This document shows, piece after piece, positions 35,428 to 59,651 of a stretch of DNA of 64,000 bases. Position 1 is the stretch's first letter. Each line of letters begins with the position of its first letter. Source of the DNA: Escherichia coli (GTDB lineage: Bacteria > Pseudomonadota > Gammaproteobacteria > Enterobacterales > Enterobacteriaceae); the NCBI RefSeq assembly GCF_011045215.1, contig NZ_CP049201.1, one strand, 5' to 3'. The translations under genes and the position numbers were made by a program. The notes beneath the pieces were generated by a model. It saw only the letters and a list, made by a program, of their open reading frames with translations, had not been told where the DNA came from and searched no databases.

Positions 35428-35515
35428 GGTGAGGTGTCCGAGTGGCTGAAGGAGCACGCCTGGAAAGTGTGTATACGGCAACGTATCGGGGGTTCGAATC
35501 CCCCCCTCACCGCCA
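35428..35515 (+). tRNA. serX: tRNA-Ser (anticodon GGA)
   Basis: 88-nt sequence GGTGAGGTGTCCGAGTGGCTGAAGGAGCACGCCTGGAAAGTGTGTATACGGCAACGTATCGGGGGTTCGAATCCCCCCCTCACCGCCA; anticodon loop CTGGAAA, long variable arm, GGTTCGAATCC T-arm, CCA end; coordinates anchored to overlapping ORF 35442..35702. Confidence 0.95.
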
Positions 35516-50309: not shown

Positions 50310-52748
50310 ATGGCTATCAAAAAAACCGAACTCTATTCTTCCCTGTGGGCAAGCTGCGACGAACTGCGTGGCGGGATGGACGCCAGCCAGTACAAAGACT
50401 ATGTACTGACCCTGCTGTTTATGAAGTACGTTTCCGATAAGTATAAAGGCGATCCTTACGGGATGATCGTGATACCCAAAGGAGCCAGCTTTGACGATAT
50501 GGTTGCGCTGAAAAATGACAAAGAGATCGGCGACAAAATCAACAAAATCATCCACAAGCTGGCGGAAGAGAACGGCCTGAAGGGCGTCATCGACGAAGCC
50601 GACTTTAACGACGAAGATAAGCTCGGCAAAGGCAAGGAAATGATTGACCGCCTGAGCAAGCTTGTCGGTATCTTTGAAGGGTTAAATCTCTCCAGCAACC
50701 GGGCCGAAGGCGACGATCTGCTGGGCGATGCCTATGAATATCTGATGCGTCACTTCGCAACCGAATCCGGTAAGAGTAAAGGGCAGTTTTACACTCCAGC
50801 GGAGGTGTCACGTATTCTGGCGAAGGTGATTGGTATTACTCCCGATACTCCGCAAGATGCAACGGTTTATGACCCAACCTGTGGCTCTGGTTCGCTGCTG
50901 TTGAAAGTGAATGATGAAGCCCGGCGCGGACTGTCGATTTTCGGCCAGGAGATGGATAACGCTACCAGTGCGCTGGCGCGGATGAACATGATTCTGCATA
51001 ACAATGCCACCGCGAAAATCTGGCAGGGCAATACGCTGAGCGATCCGCAGTGGAAAGAGGCGAACGGCAAACTGAAAGCCTTCGATTTTGCCGTGGCGAA
51101 CCCGCCTTTTTCCAATAAAAACTGGACCAACGGGCTGACGCCGAAAAAAGATCCGTTTGAACGCTTCGGCTGGGGTATTCCGCCGGAAAAAAACGGCGAT
51201 TATGCTTTTTTGTTGCATATCATTAAAAGCCTGAAAAGTACCGGCAAAGGCGCGGTGATCCTGCCCCACGGCGTACTGTTTCGCGGTAACGCCGAAGCGA
51301 ATATCCGTGAAAATCTAATCAAGCAGGGCTATATCAAAGGCGTTATTGGTTTGCCAGCCAACCTGTTTTACGGCACCGGCATCCCGGCGTGCATCATTGT
51401 GATTGATAAAGAGCACGCCCACAGCCGCAAAGGCATTTTTATGATCGACGCCAGCCGGGGCTTTATCAAAGATGGCAACAAGAACCGCCTGCGTAGCCGA
51501 GATATTCACCGCATTGTGGACGTGTTCAACCATCAGCGAACGGTACCTGGCTACAGCCGGATGGTGCCCTCCAGCGAGATCGCCGGAAATGATTACAACC
51601 TGAATATTCCTCGCTATATCGAGAGCGGCGAGCCGGAAGATTTACACGATCTGACCGCGCACTTACAGGGCGGTATTCCGGCACGCGATGTGGATGCTTT
51701 GCAAGATTACTGGCGGGTATTCCCTGCCCTGCGCAACGTGCTGTTTGCTGACGACCGTCCCGGTTACTGTCGGGCGCAGGTGAACGCGCAACAGGTGAAA
51801 CCGACCATTCTGGCGCATCAGGAGTTTAAGGATTTTGCCACCCGCAGCCTGCTACCGTTTAAAGCGTGGGTGAAAGAGGCAAGTCTGGAAGAGATTCGCA
51901 AAGGTGATAAACCCAAAGCGCTAATCCACGATATCAGCGAAATGCTATTGGCGCAGTACGCCAACAGTGAGTTGCTGAACAAATACAGCGTGTACCAGAT
52001 CCTGATGGATTACTGGACTGATGTCATGCAAGACGATGTGTATGCGATTATGCAGGATGGCTGGCAAGCCGCCGCGCAAATCCGCGAGCTTCAGCCGGTG
52101 AAAGGCAAAGATGGCAAAAACATCTGGAAAGAAACGCACGATTTCGAGTTTACCAAACGGCGCTACAAGGCCGATGTGCTGCCCCGTTCGCTGGTGGAAA
52201 TTCGCTGTTTCCCGGAACTGCTGGATGCGCTGAACCGCGCGCAGGAGCGCAGTGAAGAAGCCAGTCGTCAGCTAGTGGAATTCATCGAGGAGCAGGCAGG
52301 TGAAGAGGATCTGCTGGCCGAGGCGAAGAACGATAAAGATAAGGTGACGCAAAAGCTGGTGAATGCCCGTCTAGCACAGTTAAAGAAAACCACTGCCGGC
52401 CCAGATGAGCTGGCAGTGCTGAACCGCTGCCTGGCGCTAATTAAGGCCGAAGCCAGTGCGAAAAAAGCGCTGAAAGCCGCACAAGAAGCGCTGGATCGGG
52501 CGGTGTTTAAACATTATCCCACGCTGGATGAAGCAGCGATTAAAACGCTGGTAGTGCAGGATAAGTGGCTGGCAACGTTGCAGGCAGGGATCAAGGCGGA
52601 GATTGAGCGTATTACCCAGCAACTGGCGTCGCGCGTAAAGGAGCTGGAAGAGCGTTATGCTGAACCGTTGCTAGCGCTTGAAGCCTCCGTTGAGGCGTTG
52701 AGCGAGAAAGTGGCCGGGCATTTGCGGGCGATGGGGCTGGAGTGGTGA
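50310..52748 (+). CDS. hsdM: type I restriction-modification system methyltransferase subunit HsdM (long form)
   Basis: ORF track 812 aa; AdoMet motif DPTCGSGSLL and catalytic motif VANPPFS read directly; stop overlaps hsdS start. Confidence 0.9.
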   Translation: MAIKKTELYSSLWASCDELRGGMDASQYKDYVLTLLFMKYVSDKYKGDPYGMIVIPKGASFDDMVALKNDKEIGDKINKIIHKLAEENGLKGVIDEADFNDEDKLGKGKEMIDRLSKLVGIFEGLNLSSNRAEGDDLLGDAYEYLMRHFATESGKSKGQFYTPAEVSRILAKVIGITPDTPQDATVYDPTCGSGSLLLKVNDEARRGLSIFGQEMDNATSALARMNMILHNNATAKIWQGNTLSDPQWKEANGKLKAFDFAVANPPFSNKNWTNGLTPKKDPFERFGWGIPPEKNGDYAFLLHIIKSLKSTGKGAVILPHGVLFRGNAEANIRENLIKQGYIKGVIGLPANLFYGTGIPACIIVIDKEHAHSRKGIFMIDASRGFIKDGNKNRLRSRDIHRIVDVFNHQRTVPGYSRMVPSSEIAGNDYNLNIPRYIESGEPEDLHDLTAHLQGGIPARDVDALQDYWRVFPALRNVLFADDRPGYCRAQVNAQQVKPTILAHQEFKDFATRSLLPFKAWVKEASLEEIRKGDKPKALIHDISEMLLAQYANSELLNKYSVYQILMDYWTDVMQDDVYAIMQDGWQAAAQIRELQPVKGKDGKNIWKETHDFEFTKRRYKADVLPRSLVEIRCFPELLDALNRAQERSEEASRQLVEFIEEQAGEEDLLAEAKNDKDKVTQKLVNARLAQLKKTTAGPDELAVLNRCLALIKAEASAKKALKAAQEALDRAVFKHYPTLDEAAIKTLVVQDKWLATLQAGIKAEIERITQQLASRVKELEERYAEPLLALEASVEALSEKVAGHLRAMGLEW

Positions 52749-54088
52749 TGGTGGATTTAATGGTGAATGAGCAACGGTCGAGTACGGCGGGGAAAGATGT
52801 GCCTGCGGGGTATAAACTGACTGAGGTGGGCGTGATTCCTGAGGATTGGGATTGCGTACCATTTGGTAATCTGTTTAAAACAAACACAAAGAAAAAAAAA
52901 GTCAGCGATTATGAGCTAGTTTCATTTATTGGGATGCAGGATGTTAGTGAAGATGCACAATTAAAAAATAATACTCAACTTCCTTTTAAAGAAGTTAAAA
53001 GTGGTTTTACTTACTTTGAAAAAGGGGATGTTTTATTAGCTAAAATAACCCCTTGTTTTGAAAATGGAAAAGGATGTCATACCGCTGATTTACCTACTAA
53101 TGTAGGTTTTGGGAGTACGGAATTTCATGTATTAAGGGAAAATGAAGACTCCGATTCTCGCTTCATCTATTTTTGGACAACTGATAAAAAATTCAGAGCA
53201 TCACTGGAATCTGAAATGGTGGGAAGTGCGGGACACCGTCGTGTGCCGCTAGTTGCTATAGAAAAATATTTGATTCCATGTCCCCCAAATTTGCAAGAGC
53301 AAAGTGCTATTGCTGATTCATTATCTGATATTAATAATTTTATTCTAGCTCTAGAAAAGCTTATCGTTAAAAAACAAGCCATTAAAACCGCTACTATGCA
53401 GCAACTACTGACGGGTAAAACCCGTTTGCCACAGTTTGCGTTACGCAAAGATGGCTCTGCTAAGGGATATAAAAAGAGCGAGTTGGGGGCGATTCCTGAA
53501 GATTGGGTAGTCACAAGCATTGGACAATTTACTGACTGCTGTGCTGGTGGAACTCCGAGTACTAAAATTTCAGCATATTGGGGAGGAACTCATCCTTGGA
53601 TGAGTTCCGGCGAATTACACTTAAAACAAGTGTATGCTGTAGCCGATTATATAACCGACGAAGGGCTTGTTAACTCCAGTACAAAGTATGTGCCTAAAAA
53701 TTCTGTATTAGTCGGATTGGCAGGACAAGGAAAGACTCGAGGGACTGTAGCAATTAATCGCATTGAATTATGTACTAATCAGTCTATTGCTGCGATTTTC
53801 CCCAGCAAACATCATTCCACAGAATTCCTGTTCTATAACCTCGACAGTCGTTATGAGGAACTGAGAAGTTTATCTACTGGTGATGGGGGGCGTGGTGGGT
53901 TGAATCTTACTATTATCAGGAAATTACATCTTGCATTTCCGCCAAAAGAAGAACAAGCCGCCATCGCCGCCATCCTCTCCGATATGGACAAGGAAATCCA
54001 GATCCTGCAACAGCGTCTGGACAAAACCCGCCAGCTTAAGCAAGGGATGATGCAGGAACTGTTAACCGGGAAAATCCGCTTAATATAG
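52748..54088 (+). CDS. hsdS: type I restriction-modification system specificity subunit HsdS
   Basis: ORF track 52742..54088 (448 aa); ATG at 52748 overlaps the hsdM TGA; two target-recognition-like halves with AT-rich codon usage. Confidence 0.88.
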   Translation: MVDLMVNEQRSSTAGKDVPAGYKLTEVGVIPEDWDCVPFGNLFKTNTKKKKVSDYELVSFIGMQDVSEDAQLKNNTQLPFKEVKSGFTYFEKGDVLLAKITPCFENGKGCHTADLPTNVGFGSTEFHVLRENEDSDSRFIYFWTTDKKFRASLESEMVGSAGHRRVPLVAIEKYLIPCPPNLQEQSAIADSLSDINNFILALEKLIVKKQAIKTATMQQLLTGKTRLPQFALRKDGSAKGYKKSELGAIPEDWVVTSIGQFTDCCAGGTPSTKISAYWGGTHPWMSSGELHLKQVYAVADYITDEGLVNSSTKYVPKNSVLVGLAGQGKTRGTVAINRIELCTNQSIAAIFPSKHHSTEFLFYNLDSRYEELRSLSTGDGGRGGLNLTIIRKLHLAFPPKEEQAAIAAILSDMDKEIQILQQRLDKTRQLKQGMMQELLTGKIRLI

Positions 54089-54100
54089 AAGGGAAAGCAC

Positions 54101-54757
54101 ATGGCTTATGATTACAGCGCCAGCCTCAACCCGCAAAAAGCTCTGATCTGGCGTATCGTCCATCGGGACAATATCCCGTGGATTCTGGATAACGGGCTGC
54201 ACTGCGGCAACAGTCTGGTGCAGGCGGAAAACTGGATCAATATCGGCAACCCGGAGCTGATCGGCAAGCGTGCCGGGCATCCGGTACCTGTCGGAACGGG
54301 CGGGACACTGCATGACTATGTGCCGTTTTATTTTACCCCCTTCTCGCCAATGCTGATGAACATCCACAGCGGGCGCGGCGGCATTAAGCAACGCCCCAAT
54401 GAGGAGATCGTTATTCTGGTCAGCAACTTGCGGAACGTGGCAGCACACGACGTGCCCTTCGTGTTTACCGACAGCCATGCTTACTATAACTGGACCAACT
54501 ACTACACCAGTCTGAATAGTCTGGACCAGATCGACTGGCCCATTTTGCAGGCACGGGACTTTCGCCGCGATCCAGACGATCCGGCTAAATTTGAACGCTA
54601 TCAGGCAGAGGCGCTAATCTGGCAACACTGCCCGATCTCTCTGCTGGATGGGATAATTTGTTACAGCGAAGAGGTCAGGTTACAATTAGAGCAATGGCTG
54701 TTTCAGCGTAATCTAACAATGTCCGTTCACACACGGGCTGGATGGTACTTCTCATGA
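54101..54757 (+). CDS. darT: DarT, DNA ADP-ribosyltransferase toxin (DUF4433)
   Basis: ORF track 218 aa; motifs [18 protein letters not shown] and C-terminal GWY(F) line up with recalled DarT; starts 13 nt after hsdS stop. Confidence 0.88.
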
Positions 54758-55821
54758 TCACATATACACAAGGCAATTTACTGGACGCACCGGTGGAAGC
54801 TCTGGTGAATACGGTTAATACCGTCGGTGTCATGGGGAAAGGCATCGCGTTGATGTTTAAAGAGCGCTTCCCCGAAAATATGAAAGTCTATGCCCTCGCT
54901 TGCAAACAAAAGCAGGTGATCACCGGCAAAATGTTCATTACCGAAACCGGGGAACTGATGGGACCGCGCTGGATTGTTAATTTTCCGACCAAACAGCACT
55001 GGCGCGCTGATTCCCGCATGGAGTGGATTGAAGATGGCTTGCAGGACTTACGCCGCTTTTTGATTGAAGAGAACGTGCAGTCCATCGCCATTCCACCACT
55101 GGGCGCAGGCAACGGTGGTTTGAACTGGCCGGACGTTCGGGCGCAGATTGAATCTGCCCTTGGCGACCTTCAGGACGTTGATATCCTGATTTACCAACCG
55201 ACTGAAAAATACCAGAACGTTGCCAAAAGCACTGGCGTAAAAAAGCTCACTCCCGCCAGAGCCGCCATCGCTGAACTGGTGCGTCGCTACTGGGTATTGG
55301 GGATGGAGTGCAGCCTACTGGAAATCCAGAAACTGGCCTGGCTGTTACAACGCGCCATTGAGCAGCATCAACAGGACGATATCCTCAAACTGCGGTTTGA
55401 AGCTCACTATTATGGCCCCTATGCGCCCAATCTGAACCATCTGCTTAATGCGCTGGACGGCACCTATCTAAAAGCCGAGAAACGCATCCCGGACAGCCAA
55501 CCGCTGGATGTGATCTGGTTTAACGATCAAAAAAAAGAACACGTTAATGCGTATCTGAACAACGAAGCCAGAGAGTGGCTACCTGCGCTGGAGCAGGTCA
55601 GCCAGTTAATTGACGGCTTTGAATCGCCGTTTGGTCTGGAGTTGCTGGCAACCGTAGACTGGTTGCTGAGCCGTGGCGAATGTCAACCAACGCTGGATTC
55701 CGTTAAGGAAGGACTGCACCAGTGGCCTGCGGGCGAACGCTGGGCCAGCCGTAAGTTGAGGCTGTTTGATAATAATAATCTGCAATTTGCCATTAACCGC
55801 GTAATGGAGTTCCATTGCTGA
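54754..55821 (+). CDS. darG: DarG, macrodomain antitoxin (DNA ADP-ribosyl glycohydrolase)
   Basis: ORF track 54742..55821; ATG at 54754 overlaps darT stop (ATGA); N-terminal macrodomain signature [39 protein letters not shown]; about 200-aa C-terminal domain. Confidence 0.88.
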
Positions 55822-55839
55822 GGGTTTAAGGAGCGCCTT

Positions 55840-58800
55840 TTGAGTACCGTGGGCCAGCGCGAACGCGCCACACAGCAGCGTCTGATTCAGTTTTTTGTTG
55901 AAGATTTAGGATACCGCCATCTGAGTCACCGCACCGGGTACACCGGGAACAGCAACATCGACACTAATATACTGAGCGCGTGGCTAAAACGGCGCGGCGT
56001 TAATGATACGTTGATCACCCGGGCGTTGCGGCAACTGGATTCCGCCGCCGCCCTGGGCGAAGGCAAAAAACTCTATTACGCCAATAAAGAGGTCTATCGC
56101 CTGCTGCGTTACGGCGTGAAAGACAAAGAAGGTGCAGGCGAGCAGAACCAAACCGTGTGGCTGATTGACTGGGCCAACCCACAAGCCAATGATTTCGCCA
56201 TCGCCGATGAGGTGACGGTCAAAGGCGAGTACTGCAAGCGCCCGGATCTGGTGCTGTACGTTAACGGCATTGCGCTGGGCGTGATTGAACTTAAGCGTTC
56301 GTCAGTGCACGTCAGCGAAGGTATCCGGCAGAATCTCGATAATCAAAAGAAAACCTTTATCCGCGATTTCTTCACCACTATGCAGTTAGTGATGGCAGGC
56401 AACGATACGCAGGGCCTGCGCTACGGCACCATCGAAACCCCGGAAAAATACTATCTGGAGTGGAAAGAAGATAATCCAGGCGACTATACACATAAACTCG
56501 ACTTTCATTTAAGTCGTCTGTGTAGCAAATCCAGGCTGTTGGATATCGTCCATAATTACATTGTCTTTGATGTCGGGGTGAAAAAACTCTGCCGCCATAA
56601 TCAGTTCTTCGGCGTCGAGGCGGCTAAGCAACATATTGCCCGTCGTGAAGGCGGTATTATCTGGCACACACAGGGATCGGGTAAAAGCCTGACGATGGTC
56701 TGGCTGGCGAAGTGGATCCGTGAAAATGTGCCAAACTCCCGCGTGTTGATTGTGACTGACCGCACCGAACTGGATGAACAGATCGAAAGCGTGTTTATGG
56801 GCGTGAATGAAGATATTTATCGCACCTCCAGCGGCAACGATCTTATCGCAACGCTCAATCATCCTAACCCGTGGCTTATTTGCTCGCTGGTGCATAAATT
56901 TGGTTGTCGCAGCGAAGCTGAAGACAATGCGGCTACCGACGCCTTTATCACCGAATTACAGCAGTCCCTGACGAAAACATTCCGCGCCAAAGGCGATCTG
57001 TTTGTTTTTGTGGACGAGTGCCACCGCACACAATCCGGCAAGCTGCATAACGCCATGACTGCCATTCTGCCGGACGCCCTGTTTATCGGTTTTACCGGCA
57101 CACCGCTGATGAAGAAAGATAAGAAGAAGTCGGTTGAGGTGTTCGGCCCTTATATCCATACCTATAAATTTGATGAAGCGGTGGCCGACGGTGTGGTGCT
57201 GGATCTGCGCTACGAGGCGCGCGATATTGACCAGTATCTGACATCAGAGAAAAAGGTCGATGACTGGTTTGAAGCCAAGACTCGCGGTTTGTCGAATTTA
57301 GCCAGGACCCAGCTTAAGCAAAAGTGGGGATCAATGCAGAAGCTGCTCTCCAGCAAGTCGCGGCTGGAGCAGATCGTTAACGACATTTTGCTGGATATGG
57401 ATACCCGTCCACGCCTGATGGACGGGCGCGGCAACGCCATGCTGGTATGCAGCAGTATCTATCAAGCCTGCAAGGTTTACGAGATGTTCAGCCAGACCGA
57501 GCTGGCAGGAAAAGTAGCGATTGTGACCAGCTATCGCCCCGATGCCGCCAGCATCAAAGGCGAAGAAACGGGCGAAGGGTTAACGGAGAAACTCTCTAAA
57601 CACGCCACCTATCGTAAAATGTTGGCTGACTATTTTGAACAAAGTGAAGAGAAGGCCGCCGCACGCATTACCGAGTTCGAGCGGGAAGTGAAACAACGTT
57701 TTATTGAAGAGCCGGGGCAAATGCGCCTGCTTATCGTGGTGGACAAGCTGTTGACTGGCTTTGACGCGCCGTCCGCCACCTATCTCTACATTGATAAAAC
57801 CATGACCGACCATACGCTGTTTCAGGCGATTTGTCGGGTGAACCGGCTGGACGGTGAGGATAAAGAGTATGGCTATATTATCGATTATAAAGATCTGTTC
57901 CGTTCGCTGGATAAAGCGATTACCGATTACACCACGGGCGCGTTTGATGATTACGATCGGGACGATGTGGCCGGGTTGCTGAAAGACAGGCTGGAGCAGG
58001 CGCAACTGGATCTCGACAGCGCGCTGGAGATGGTTCGCAGCTTATGTGAGCCCGTCAAAACCCCGCGCAGCCTGCAGGACTATCAGCACTATTTTTGCGG
58101 TAAATCAGGAGAGAATCAGACTTCGTTAAACGAAAAAGAGGCGCTGCGCCTGACATTTTACCAGTGCGTCGCCCGTCTGCTACGCGCTTATGCCAGCATC
58201 GCCAATGAAATGCCGGAAGCAGGCTACACTGCCGAAGAGGTAGAGAGCATTCGCGCCGAAGTCGCTGAATTCGAAAAACTGCGCTATGAGATTAAGCTGA
58301 CCAGCGGCGATCTTCTGGATATGAAGCGCTTTGAACCCGCTATGCGTCATTTACTGGATATGTATGTTCGCGCCGATGGTAGCGAAGTGCTGATGGATTT
58401 TGAAGAGTTAAGTCTGATTGAACTGATTGTCGAGAAAGGCTTGGCGGCGACCGTCGCCCTGCCGGATGATATCCGTAATAATCAGGATGCGATGGCGGAA
58501 ACCATCGAAAACAACGTGCGCAAAACCATCGTGGATGAAAACCCGGTTAACCCAAAATACTATGGACGCATGTCGCAGCTGCTGGATGAACTGATTACCC
58601 TTCGCCGACAAAATGCGCTCAATTATCAGCAGTATCTGGAACGTATCCGCGATTTGTGTAAACAGGTCATCCGCCCGGAGCAAACCGCCGGAGCGTGCTA
58701 CCCTGCCACCATGGATACACAAGCAAAGCGCGCCTTCTATGACAACTTCGGCCACGACGAGGTACTGGCGACCCGCATAGATACGACAATTCGCTATACC

Positions 58801-58935
58801 AAAAGGGCAGAGTGGATTGGCGATCGTTTTAAAGAACGGGAAATTGCCAACGCATTACGTGAAGAGACCGCCAGCTATAATATTGATATTGATGAGGTGA
58901 TAGCGCTTGCCCGTCAGCAGAAGGAATATCACTGA
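55840..58935 (+). CDS. hsdR: type I restriction enzyme endonuclease/translocase subunit HsdR
   Basis: ORF track 1031 aa; nuclease-like DLVLYVNGIALGVIELK and helicase DECH (FVFVDECHRTQ) motifs read; starts 19 nt after darG. Confidence 0.92.
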   Translation: MSTVGQRERATQQRLIQFFVEDLGYRHLSHRTGYTGNSNIDTNILSAWLKRRGVNDTLITRALRQLDSAAALGEGKKLYYANKEVYRLLRYGVKDKEGAGEQNQTVWLIDWANPQANDFAIADEVTVKGEYCKRPDLVLYVNGIALGVIELKRSSVHVSEGIRQNLDNQKKTFIRDFFTTMQLVMAGNDTQGLRYGTIETPEKYYLEWKEDNPGDYTHKLDFHLSRLCSKSRLLDIVHNYIVFDVGVKKLCRHNQFFGVEAAKQHIARREGGIIWHTQGSGKSLTMVWLAKWIRENVPNSRVLIVTDRTELDEQIESVFMGVNEDIYRTSSGNDLIATLNHPNPWLICSLVHKFGCRSEAEDNAATDAFITELQQSLTKTFRAKGDLFVFVDECHRTQSGKLHNAMTAILPDALFIGFTGTPLMKKDKKKSVEVFGPYIHTYKFDEAVADGVVLDLRYEARDIDQYLTSEKKVDDWFEAKTRGLSNLARTQLKQKWGSMQKLLSSKSRLEQIVNDILLDMDTRPRLMDGRGNAMLVCSSIYQACKVYEMFSQTELAGKVAIVTSYRPDAASIKGEETGEGLTEKLSKHATYRKMLADYFEQSEEKAAARITEFEREVKQRFIEEPGQMRLLIVVDKLLTGFDAPSATYLYIDKTMTDHTLFQAICRVNRLDGEDKEYGYIIDYKDLFRSLDKAITDYTTGAFDDYDRDDVAGLLKDRLEQAQLDLDSALEMVRSLCEPVKTPRSLQDYQHYFCGKSGENQTSLNEKEALRLTFYQCVARLLRAYASIANEMPEAGYTAEEVESIRAEVAEFEKLRYEIKLTSGDLLDMKRFEPAMRHLLDMYVRADGSEVLMDFEELSLIELIVEKGLAATVALPDDIRNNQDAMAETIENNVRKTIVDENPVNPKYYGRMSQLLDELITLRRQNALNYQQYLERIRDLCKQVIRPEQTAGACYPATMDTQAKRAFYDNFGHDEVLATRIDTTIRYTKRAEWIGDRFKEREIANALREETASYNIDIDEVIALARQQKEYH

Positions 58936-59651
58936 TGCCAATCATGCAAATAGGCTCGTTACACTTGCTGGTCAACCGTAAGGCGATTAAGAATCTGCAT
59001 ATCAGCGTGCTGCCGCCTGATGGCAAAGTCCGCGTTTCAGCGCCGGAACATATGACGGAGACGGCGATTCGTATGGCGGTTGCTTCACGCTTTCGCTGGA
59101 TCAGAAAACAGCAGCAGGATTTCGCCAGACAGCCTCGTCAATCAGAGAGGGAAATGGTCAGCGGAGAGTGCCACTATCTTTGGGGCCGAAGATATCGCCT
59201 ACTTGTGATTGAGCGTCACGGGCGTCACGAAGTAAAAGTTGCGGGAAATAATAAGCTCCAGCTTTATGTTCAACCGGGAACCCGTGATGAAAATAAGGCA
59301 TTGGCGTTAAGTGAATTTTATCGACATGAACTAAAACAGCAGGTGGCTAAGCTTCTACCTGAATGGCAAGACCGAATCGGTGTTCCCCTAACATTCTGGG
59401 GCATCAAAAAGATGAAAACCTTTTGGGGCACCTGTAACACTACAACAAAACGAATCTGGCTCAATCTGGAGCTAATTAAGAAGCCGCCGGAGTGTCTGGA
59501 GTATATTCTGGTGCATGAACTGGTTCATCTTCTGGAACGTCACCATAATGCTCGCTTCCGGTTGCATATGGATCGGTTTATTCCTGACTGGCGTGAGCGT
59601 CGGGATTTGTTAAATAATATGCCGTTAGCGTTTGAGGCATGGGAGTATTGA
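58935..59651 (+). CDS. DUF45/YgjP-like zinc metallopeptidase-domain protein
   Basis: ORF track 238 aa; HEXXH motif ILVHELVHLLERHH; ATG overlaps the hsdR stop by 1 nt. Confidence 0.8.
   Translation: MPIMQIGSLHLLVNRKAIKNLHISVLPPDGKVRVSAPEHMTETAIRMAVASRFRWIRKQQQDFARQPRQSEREMVSGECHYLWGRRYRLLVIERHGRHEVKVAGNNKLQLYVQPGTRDENKALALSEFYRHELKQQVAKLLPEWQDRIGVPLTFWGIKKMKTFWGTCNTTTKRIWLNLELIKKPPECLEYILVHELVHLLERHHNARFRLHMDRFIPDWRERRDLLNNMPLAFEAWEY

Follow-up and report, generated by a model that had tools for sequence, protein, structure and literature searches.

A DarTG2 toxin-antitoxin pair between hsdS and hsdR of an Escherichia coli type I restriction-modification operon, in what is most likely a copy of the RRDM defense island

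What are the two genes that separate hsdS from hsdR in a type I restriction-modification (RM) operon of Escherichia coli, and does their position place two layers of defense under shared control? We address these questions for a stretch of 64,000 nucleotides of contig NZ_CP049201.1 (assembly GCF_011045215.1), hereinafter the window, the DNA of which is E. coli-like throughout. The first-pass annotation, made from the sequence alone, had placed a DarT-DarG toxin-antitoxin pair between the hsdS stop at 54088 and the hsdR start at 55840, and two open reading frames (ORFs) are found exactly there. With a rough probability of 0.9, we conclude that the cluster is a copy of the RRDM island, in which a DarTG2 pair occupies the hsdS-hsdR slot downstream of an RptR-repressed promoter and provides an abortive layer of defense. 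This seven-gene island was described in enteropathogenic E. coli (EPEC) E2348/69 (Zhang et al., Nucleic Acids Res 2025, PMC12255303), and the EPEC sequence NC_011601.1 served as the reference for all per-protein comparisons reported here.

The first of the two genes encodes a DarT toxin. When the region 54101..54757 was searched against DarT/DUF4433 profiles, as had been proposed, it matched Pfam PF14487 (2.6e-53, positions 1-201 of 201). The NCBIfam model NF048013 (toxin_DarT) is matched over positions 1-204 of 204 with 262.9 bits (cut-off 150), the PADLOC DarT profile with an E-value of 2.2e-74 and, among solved structures, Thermus DarT (PDB 7omv) with 2.9e-26. All DarT hallmarks initially read from the translation are present, namely, HDYVPFYF at residue 71, PFVFTD at 119, IDWP at 144, and the terminal GWY at 214. 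G49 is retained, and so is the catalytic glutamate E170, which lies within RYQAEALIW and is aligned to the residue that was mutated in the E160A construct crystallized as 7omv (E160 in Thermus aquaticus, E170 in EPEC). Altogether, 216 of the 218 residues (99.1%) are identical to those of DarT from EPEC E2348/69, an enzyme that ADP-ribosylates single-stranded DNA (ssDNA) at TTT/TCT, stalls replication, is toxic to the cell, and is inactivated by the E170A substitution (Lawaree et al. 2020, PMC7003065). As for the EPEC protein, the DarT encoded in the window is predicted to catalyze NAD+-dependent ADP-ribosylation of thymidine in ssDNA and to be toxic without its antitoxin.

The product of the second gene starts with a macrodomain, as anticipated for DarG: the search of 54754..55821 against Macro-domain models retrieved Pfam Macro (PF01661) at residues 18-129 (4.5e-21), together with a full-length match to the NCBIfam model NF048014 (antitoxin_DarG; 451.2 bits, cut-off 250, model positions 1-337 of 338). 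The PADLOC DarG profile is matched with an E-value of 1.4e-127, and the macrodomain aligns with known DarG structures in the PDB (4.2e-55 for 5m31; about 1e-54 for 5m31 and 5m3i). Residues 183-351 correspond to the DarT-binding C-terminal domain of Mycobacterium tuberculosis DarG (PDB 7yk3_B, 5.4e-13), and the catalytic lysine K80 is present within NFPTKQHWR. The protein is identical to EPEC DarG WP_000634203.1 at all 355 of 355 positions (100%). Full-length matches to the two NCBIfam equivalog models and 99-100% identity to the EPEC proteins thus bear out the identification of the pair as DarT and DarG. The DarTG1 and DarTG2 classes are defined by the type of antitoxin, NADAR versus macrodomain (PMC11543638). 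Because the antitoxin is a macrodomain protein, with no match to the NADAR domain of DarTG1-type antitoxins found in DarG, the pair is assigned by its sequence to the DarTG2 class and predicted to be thymidine-modifying. EPEC DarG rescues cells by means of both its macrodomain and its C-terminal domain, and the K54A mutant is inactive (PMC7003065), as is K80A of T. aquaticus DarG (PMC5179494). The numbering used in the 2020 paper for EPEC DarG (macrodomain 1-126, K54A, 330 aa; PMC7003065) is offset by 26 relative to the current 355-aa annotation, and K54 of that paper corresponds to K80 both here and in the T. aquaticus protein. In the mechanical ORF list, darG begins at an in-frame upstream ATG at 54742; the start at 54754 is favored because it agrees with relatives as annotated by PGAP, with the NCBIfam model, and with the N-terminus of DarG from T. 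aquaticus. Antisense ORFs within darT and darG (e.g., 54080..54478, minus strand) were regarded as mechanical, and no support for them was seen.

The toxin gene precedes the antitoxin gene on the same strand, and the stop of darT and the start of darG share a 4-nt ATGA overlap at 54754..54757, just as first described. The flanking gaps, reported at the time as 13 and 19 nt, are one nucleotide shorter each: the hsdS-darT spacer is 12 nt (54089..54100) and the darG-hsdR spacer 18 nt (55822..55839). With 1-nt overlaps at hsdM/hsdS and hsdR/M48, every junction from hsdM to the M48 gene is either an overlap or a spacer of at most 18 nt, and the rptR-hsdM spacer is 39 nt. The hsdS gene most likely starts at ATG 52748, which gives the 1-nt overlap with the hsdM stop that is also seen in annotated relatives. 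The proposed unit hsdM-hsdS-darT-darG-hsdR holds in its composition, although not in its size: rptR lies upstream and a gene for an M48/YgjP-like metallopeptidase downstream, for a total of seven genes (Table 1). In the comparison with NC_011601.1, the resulting order, rptR-hsdM-hsdS-darT-darG-hsdR-M48, is that of the RRDM island of PMC12255303.

Table 1. Features of the island and its surroundings in the window
Feature	Position	Strand	Evidence or remark
tRNA-Ser(GGA)	35428..35515		sole tRNA in the window
Ag43 gene	43779..46703
GTPase gene	47000..47911
Island promoter, -35 box TTGAAC	49965..49970	+	identical to the EPEC -35 box shown to be functional (PMC12255303)
RptR operator, three 9-bp repeats in register	49982..50008	+	sequence and EPEC alignment; binding predicted
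rptR, 79-aa transcriptional repressor of the island	50031..50270	+	EPEC RptR identity, PDB 9r2z, Pfam HTH_73
hsdM, type I methyltransferase subunit, 812 aa, long C-terminal extension	50310..52748	+	PADLOC, TIGR00497
hsdS, specificity subunit, chimeric	52748..54088	+	PADLOC Specificity_I, three-way alignment
darT, ssDNA thymidine ADP-ribosyltransferase toxin (DarT2 class, predicted), 218 aa, ATG..TGA	54101..54757	+	NF048013, PF14487, PADLOC
darG, antitoxin, N-terminal macrodomain ADP-ribosyl glycohydrolase and C-terminal DarT-binding domain, 355 aa	54754..55821	+	NF048014, PF01661, PADLOC, PDB
hsdR, type I restriction/translocase subunit, TTG start	55840..58935	+	PADLOC REase_I, TIGR00348
M48/YgjP-like zinc metallopeptidase gene (HExxH)	58935..59651	+	Pfam PF01863, EPEC identity

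In related strains, many island genes are pseudogenes or are disrupted by insertion sequences (IS), so the cluster might be a decayed, non-functional remnant that merely resembles DarTG. This explanation is scarcely credible for the present copy: all seven ORFs are full length, with start and stop positions that agree with those of annotated relatives, no catalytic residue is altered, and the DarG sequence is that of the functional EPEC protein. Judging from these features, this copy is expected to be active.

The genes around the pair were correctly recognized as those of a type I RM system, of which all three subunits, HsdM, HsdS (including two target-recognition domains), and HsdR, are encoded intact. 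HsdM matches the PADLOC profile MTase_I (PDLC03027) over its full length (E-value 0) and TIGR00497 with 282.8 bits (cut-off 242.75); HsdR matches REase_I (PDLC03044; E-value 0) and TIGR00348 with 546.4 bits (cut-off 284.55); and HsdS matches Specificity_I (1.5e-127). HsdM and HsdR are nearly identical to the EPEC subunits (794/812 residues, 97.8%, and 1027/1031 residues, 99.6%, respectively). HsdS is only 65% identical to its EPEC counterpart, the differences being those of the variable domains. A three-way alignment resolved two such domains with conserved repeats between them, of which the N-terminal recognition domain is identical to that of the allele of E. coli DA33137 and the C-terminal one to that of EPEC E2348/69. 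The subunit is a product of the domain shuffling that is ordinary in type I systems. At a coverage of at least 80%, this hsdS was found in none of the 5,426 complete E. coli genomes, which the alignment explains by its composition from two known alleles. Given the different N-terminal target-recognition allele, the restriction specificity should differ from that of EPEC, and the recognition sequence is probably a new hybrid.

The control region of the island is conserved as well. RptR is identical to EPEC RptR in 76 of 79 positions (96.2%), matches the crystallized protein PDB 9r2z (E-value 5.7e-47, 96% identity), and contains the Pfam HTH_73 domain (1.9e-28). In EPEC, the promoter was mapped upstream of rptR, and RptR represses it through 9-bp repeats containing TAGCTA, two repeats being sufficient; the RptR site was defined by experiment as TAGCTA, and four variants, TATCTA among them, are predicted to be bound as well (PMC12255303). 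In the window, the -35 box TTGAAC sits 14 nt upstream of the -10 element AGCTAATTT, the spacing that EPEC has for the functional 5' -10 box. The operator consists of the repeats TTTAGCTAA, TTTAGCTAA, and CTTATCTAT, compared with three TTTAGCTAA units followed by CTTATCCAT in EPEC. The palindromes in these repeats, TAGCTA at 49984 and 49993 and TATCTA at 50002, overlap the -10 box and form a 9-bp register of predicted RptR sites. As TATCTA is among the variants predicted to bind RptR, three in-register sites would be retained. Among the 248 genomes matching the promoter query, the form with three TTTAGCTAA units is confined to 4 O127:H6 records, so the published EPEC operator is the minority form.

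A consensus scan of the operon found no terminator-like sites at the junctions; it also found no excess of promoter-like sites over shuffled sequence and none at the junctions. Combined with the tight packing of the genes, this gives weak, indirect support to the proposal that all seven may be expressed from one mRNA, under shared control, in line with the first-pass annotation in kind if not in the number of genes.

Several observations weigh against the overall reading of the cluster as an active RRDM island. The scan detected one weak promoter-like site inside darT (54658..54686), and its results are compatible with an internal promoter that may serve, for example, hsdR, as in classical type I systems. 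The published transcript data cover hsdM only and include no darTG junctions, and the published phage protection was measured at the level of the whole island, with the RM genes, DarTG, and M48 together (PMC12255303). The operator is one TAGCTA repeat short of the one tested in EPEC, and two substitutions, Q97R and A213S, separate DarT from the tested enzyme.

Within these limits, a two-layer mechanism can be proposed. The type I RM system would act as the first-line, non-abortive defense and the embedded DarTG2 pair as the abortive layer. DarT would use NAD+ to ADP-ribosylate thymidines in ssDNA and thereby block replication, and DarG would neutralize it in two ways, with the macrodomain (K80) removing ADP-ribose and the C-terminal domain binding DarT. 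Upon phage infection, DarT activity would escape this control, the viral DNA would be modified, and the infection would be aborted; phage defense by DarTG via ADP-ribosylated viral DNA was reported by LeRoux et al. 2022, as summarized in PMC11543638 and PMC12255303. Transcription of the cluster most likely proceeds from the sigma-70 promoter in front of rptR, and RptR dimers would repress this promoter by binding the TAGCTA/TATCTA palindromes, spaced by 9 bp, over the -10 box. Repression would be lifted during infection, and both layers would then be expressed. In the EPEC work, infection raised hsdM transcripts more than 15-fold, and E. coli DH5alpha with the cloned island was protected from five phages by factors of 10^3 to >10^7 (PMC12255303).

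To place the operon in a broader context, we examined its distribution and the contents of the hsdS-hsdR slot. Of the 5,426 complete E. coli genomes, 246 carry the 9.3-kb operon at a coverage of at least 80%, in most cases with an identity of 95-99.6%. RefSeq gives the two genes the names darT and darG there, and the NCBI pipeline applies these names in hundreds of E. coli genomes. A synthetic query of an empty, darTG-less hsdS-hsdR junction gave no contiguous match in the 5,426 genomes, and the junction is never empty in the close E. coli relatives of the RM chassis (249/249). With no empty junction found, the insertion event is not datable from these data. The slot can, however, hold other genes: in two sister operons, WEM25 (L006 1460..12805) and AL.H8 (L007 4664..12665), it is occupied by two genes of the DUF262/GmrSD type, with no darTG. 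Homology between the sister operons and the window stops at the hsdS stop codon in the alignment and restarts at the hsdR start codon, the latter as judged by eye from the printed sequences rather than by alignment. The M48 gene holds the same position in relatives regardless of the cargo. These sister operons have in common with the window the hsdM, hsdS, hsdR, and M48 chassis, rptR (in WEM25), and cargo genes that fit closely into the interval from the hsdS stop to the hsdR start. They differ in the type IV restriction-like nature of the DUF262/GmrSD cargo and in the chassis, which is about 72-82% identical at the DNA level. Such exchange of slot contents agrees with the remark on a 'recombination hotspot' in PMC12255303 and with the 'guilt-by-embedding' survey (bioRxiv 10.1101/2024.01.29.577857).

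The contents of the slot bear on the role of the toxin. Embedding could mean that DarTG is mainly an addiction or stabilization module that keeps the restriction operon and the genomic island in place rather than a second anti-phage layer, a role proposed as one reading when DarTG was first described (PMC5179494). The location of the cluster in a mobile island, beside a tRNA-Ser gene and IS remnants, would fit such a role, as would the fact that the island-level plaque assays did not single out the share of DarTG (PMC12255303). The sister operons, nonetheless, carry restriction genes of the DUF262/GmrSD type, not addiction modules, in the same slot, which hence behaves as a site for defense cargo; moreover, DarTG1 and DarTG2 systems by themselves defend E. 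coli against phages through ADP-ribosylation of viral DNA (LeRoux et al. 2022, as summarized in PMC11543638 and PMC12255303). We therefore consider a primary addiction role very unlikely and prefer the abortive defense layer.

The absence of empty junctions among the 249 relatives could also reflect a physical partnership, in which the RM complex or the M48 peptidase restrains DarT/DarG until a phage anti-restriction protein frees the toxin. There is a precedent for this in the PrrC anticodon nuclease, which is embedded in the EcoprrI hsdMSR locus and becomes active in response to Stp, an anti-restriction peptide of the phage, as outlined in the bioRxiv survey (10.1101/2024.01.29.577857). In that type of arrangement, the toxin is held by the RM complex and has no dedicated antitoxin, whereas a complete darG is present here. 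DarG alone fully neutralizes EPEC DarT in cells without RM genes (PMC7003065), DarTG2 is a stand-alone defense according to the account in PMC11543638, and a chassis that accepts unrelated cargo speaks against a specific protein-protein partnership, of which no sign was detected in the sequences examined here. Coupling of this kind is highly improbable, and independent action of DarTG2 in the slot remains the reading that we favor.

The last gene of the island enters a looser version of the same idea. The M48 protein is identical to EPEC WP_001122107.1 (238/238 residues, 100%), contains the HELVH motif, and matches the Pfam YgjP-like family PF01863 (1.6e-61). It is conceivable, albeit unlikely, that the RM complex or this peptidase senses interference by a phage (anti-restriction proteins, for example, or the loss of RptR) and triggers the release of DarT, for instance, by degrading DarG or RptR. 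If so, DarTG would be a PrrC-like back-up wired to the restriction system, and the RptR-controlled slot would serve as a general 'plug-in' site, with any cargo placed there acquiring expression that is induced by infection.

The operon resides in an island downstream of tRNA-Ser(GGA), the probable integration site; the other genes of this island are typical of such elements and include those for Ag43 and a GTPase. Immediately upstream of the Ag43 gene, Rfam reports an 'IS102 RNA' match (46647..46883, minus strand). Adjoining the island promoter is a 314-aa ORF (48088..49032, minus strand) with a weak N-terminal match to GIY-YIG nucleases (E-value 0.017); the ORF is conserved at the corresponding position in DA33137 and annotated there as a hypothetical protein. 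On the other side, between the defense island and a VENN toxin gene, lies a gene (60259..60816, minus strand) for a 185-aa member of the Rck/OmpX (Ail/Lom) family of outer-membrane proteins, with a score of 152 bits against a cut-off of 258, below the equivalog level. The VENN gene itself, at 61082..62208 (minus strand), is a 298-aa ORF with a PT-VENN pre-toxin domain (AENN motif), the C-terminal region of which had no family match, and is directly followed by a 77-aa hydrophobic ORF. By sequence, the two resemble an orphan toxin-immunity module of the cdiA-CT/cdiI kind. Even the best matches in E. coli cover this region only from 62042 onward, the part that includes arcA. The NCBIfam search gave no match for RptR, the M48 protein, the product of the 314-aa ORF, or the VENN protein, and these were classified with Pfam and PDB instead.

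The system is already known in exactly this form, and its annotation is routine and ordinary, given that DarTG insertions in type I RM operons were pointed out in 2016 (Jankevicius et al., PMC5179494), near-identical EPEC proteins were characterized in 2020, and the whole island was tested against phages in 2025. Beyond confirming the annotation, the window adds little other than a natural variant for work on the island, with a new combination of HsdS domains and a two-plus-one operator.

Comparison with the known systems puts the locus closest to the EPEC RRDM island, with which it shares the same seven genes in the same order, the junction architecture, the -35 and -10 boxes, and the RptR palindromes. 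The two differ in HsdS, owing to the other N-terminal target-recognition allele present here; in the operator, two TTTAGCTAA units plus TATCTA here as opposed to three TTTAGCTAA in EPEC; and in their surroundings, a serX-linked island with Ag43 in the window and an IS-flanked one in EPEC. The DarTG2 systems of T. aquaticus, Thermus sp. 2.9, and M. tuberculosis (PMC5179494; PDB 7omv, 5m31, 5m3i, 7yk3) have the same two-gene layout, toxin then antitoxin, the same DarT fold family and catalytic glutamate, and a DarG with the K80 macrodomain and the C-terminal DarT-binding domain. The toxins of T. aquaticus and EPEC are, however, only 29.5% identical by the published figure, and the sequence preference of EPEC-type DarT is for TTT/TCT and not for TNTC (PMC7003065); the M. 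tuberculosis genes do not sit inside an RM operon as the pair does here. The PrrC-EcoprrI locus (hsdM-hsdS-prrC-hsdR) likewise carries a gene for an abortive-infection toxin between hsdS and hsdR and, with it, two defense layers in one locus. PrrC, however, comes without a dedicated antitoxin gene, is kept masked by the RM complex itself, and cleaves tRNA-Lys rather than modifying DNA, whereas DarT in the window comes with its own enzymatic antitoxin and shows no sign of dependence on the Hsd proteins.

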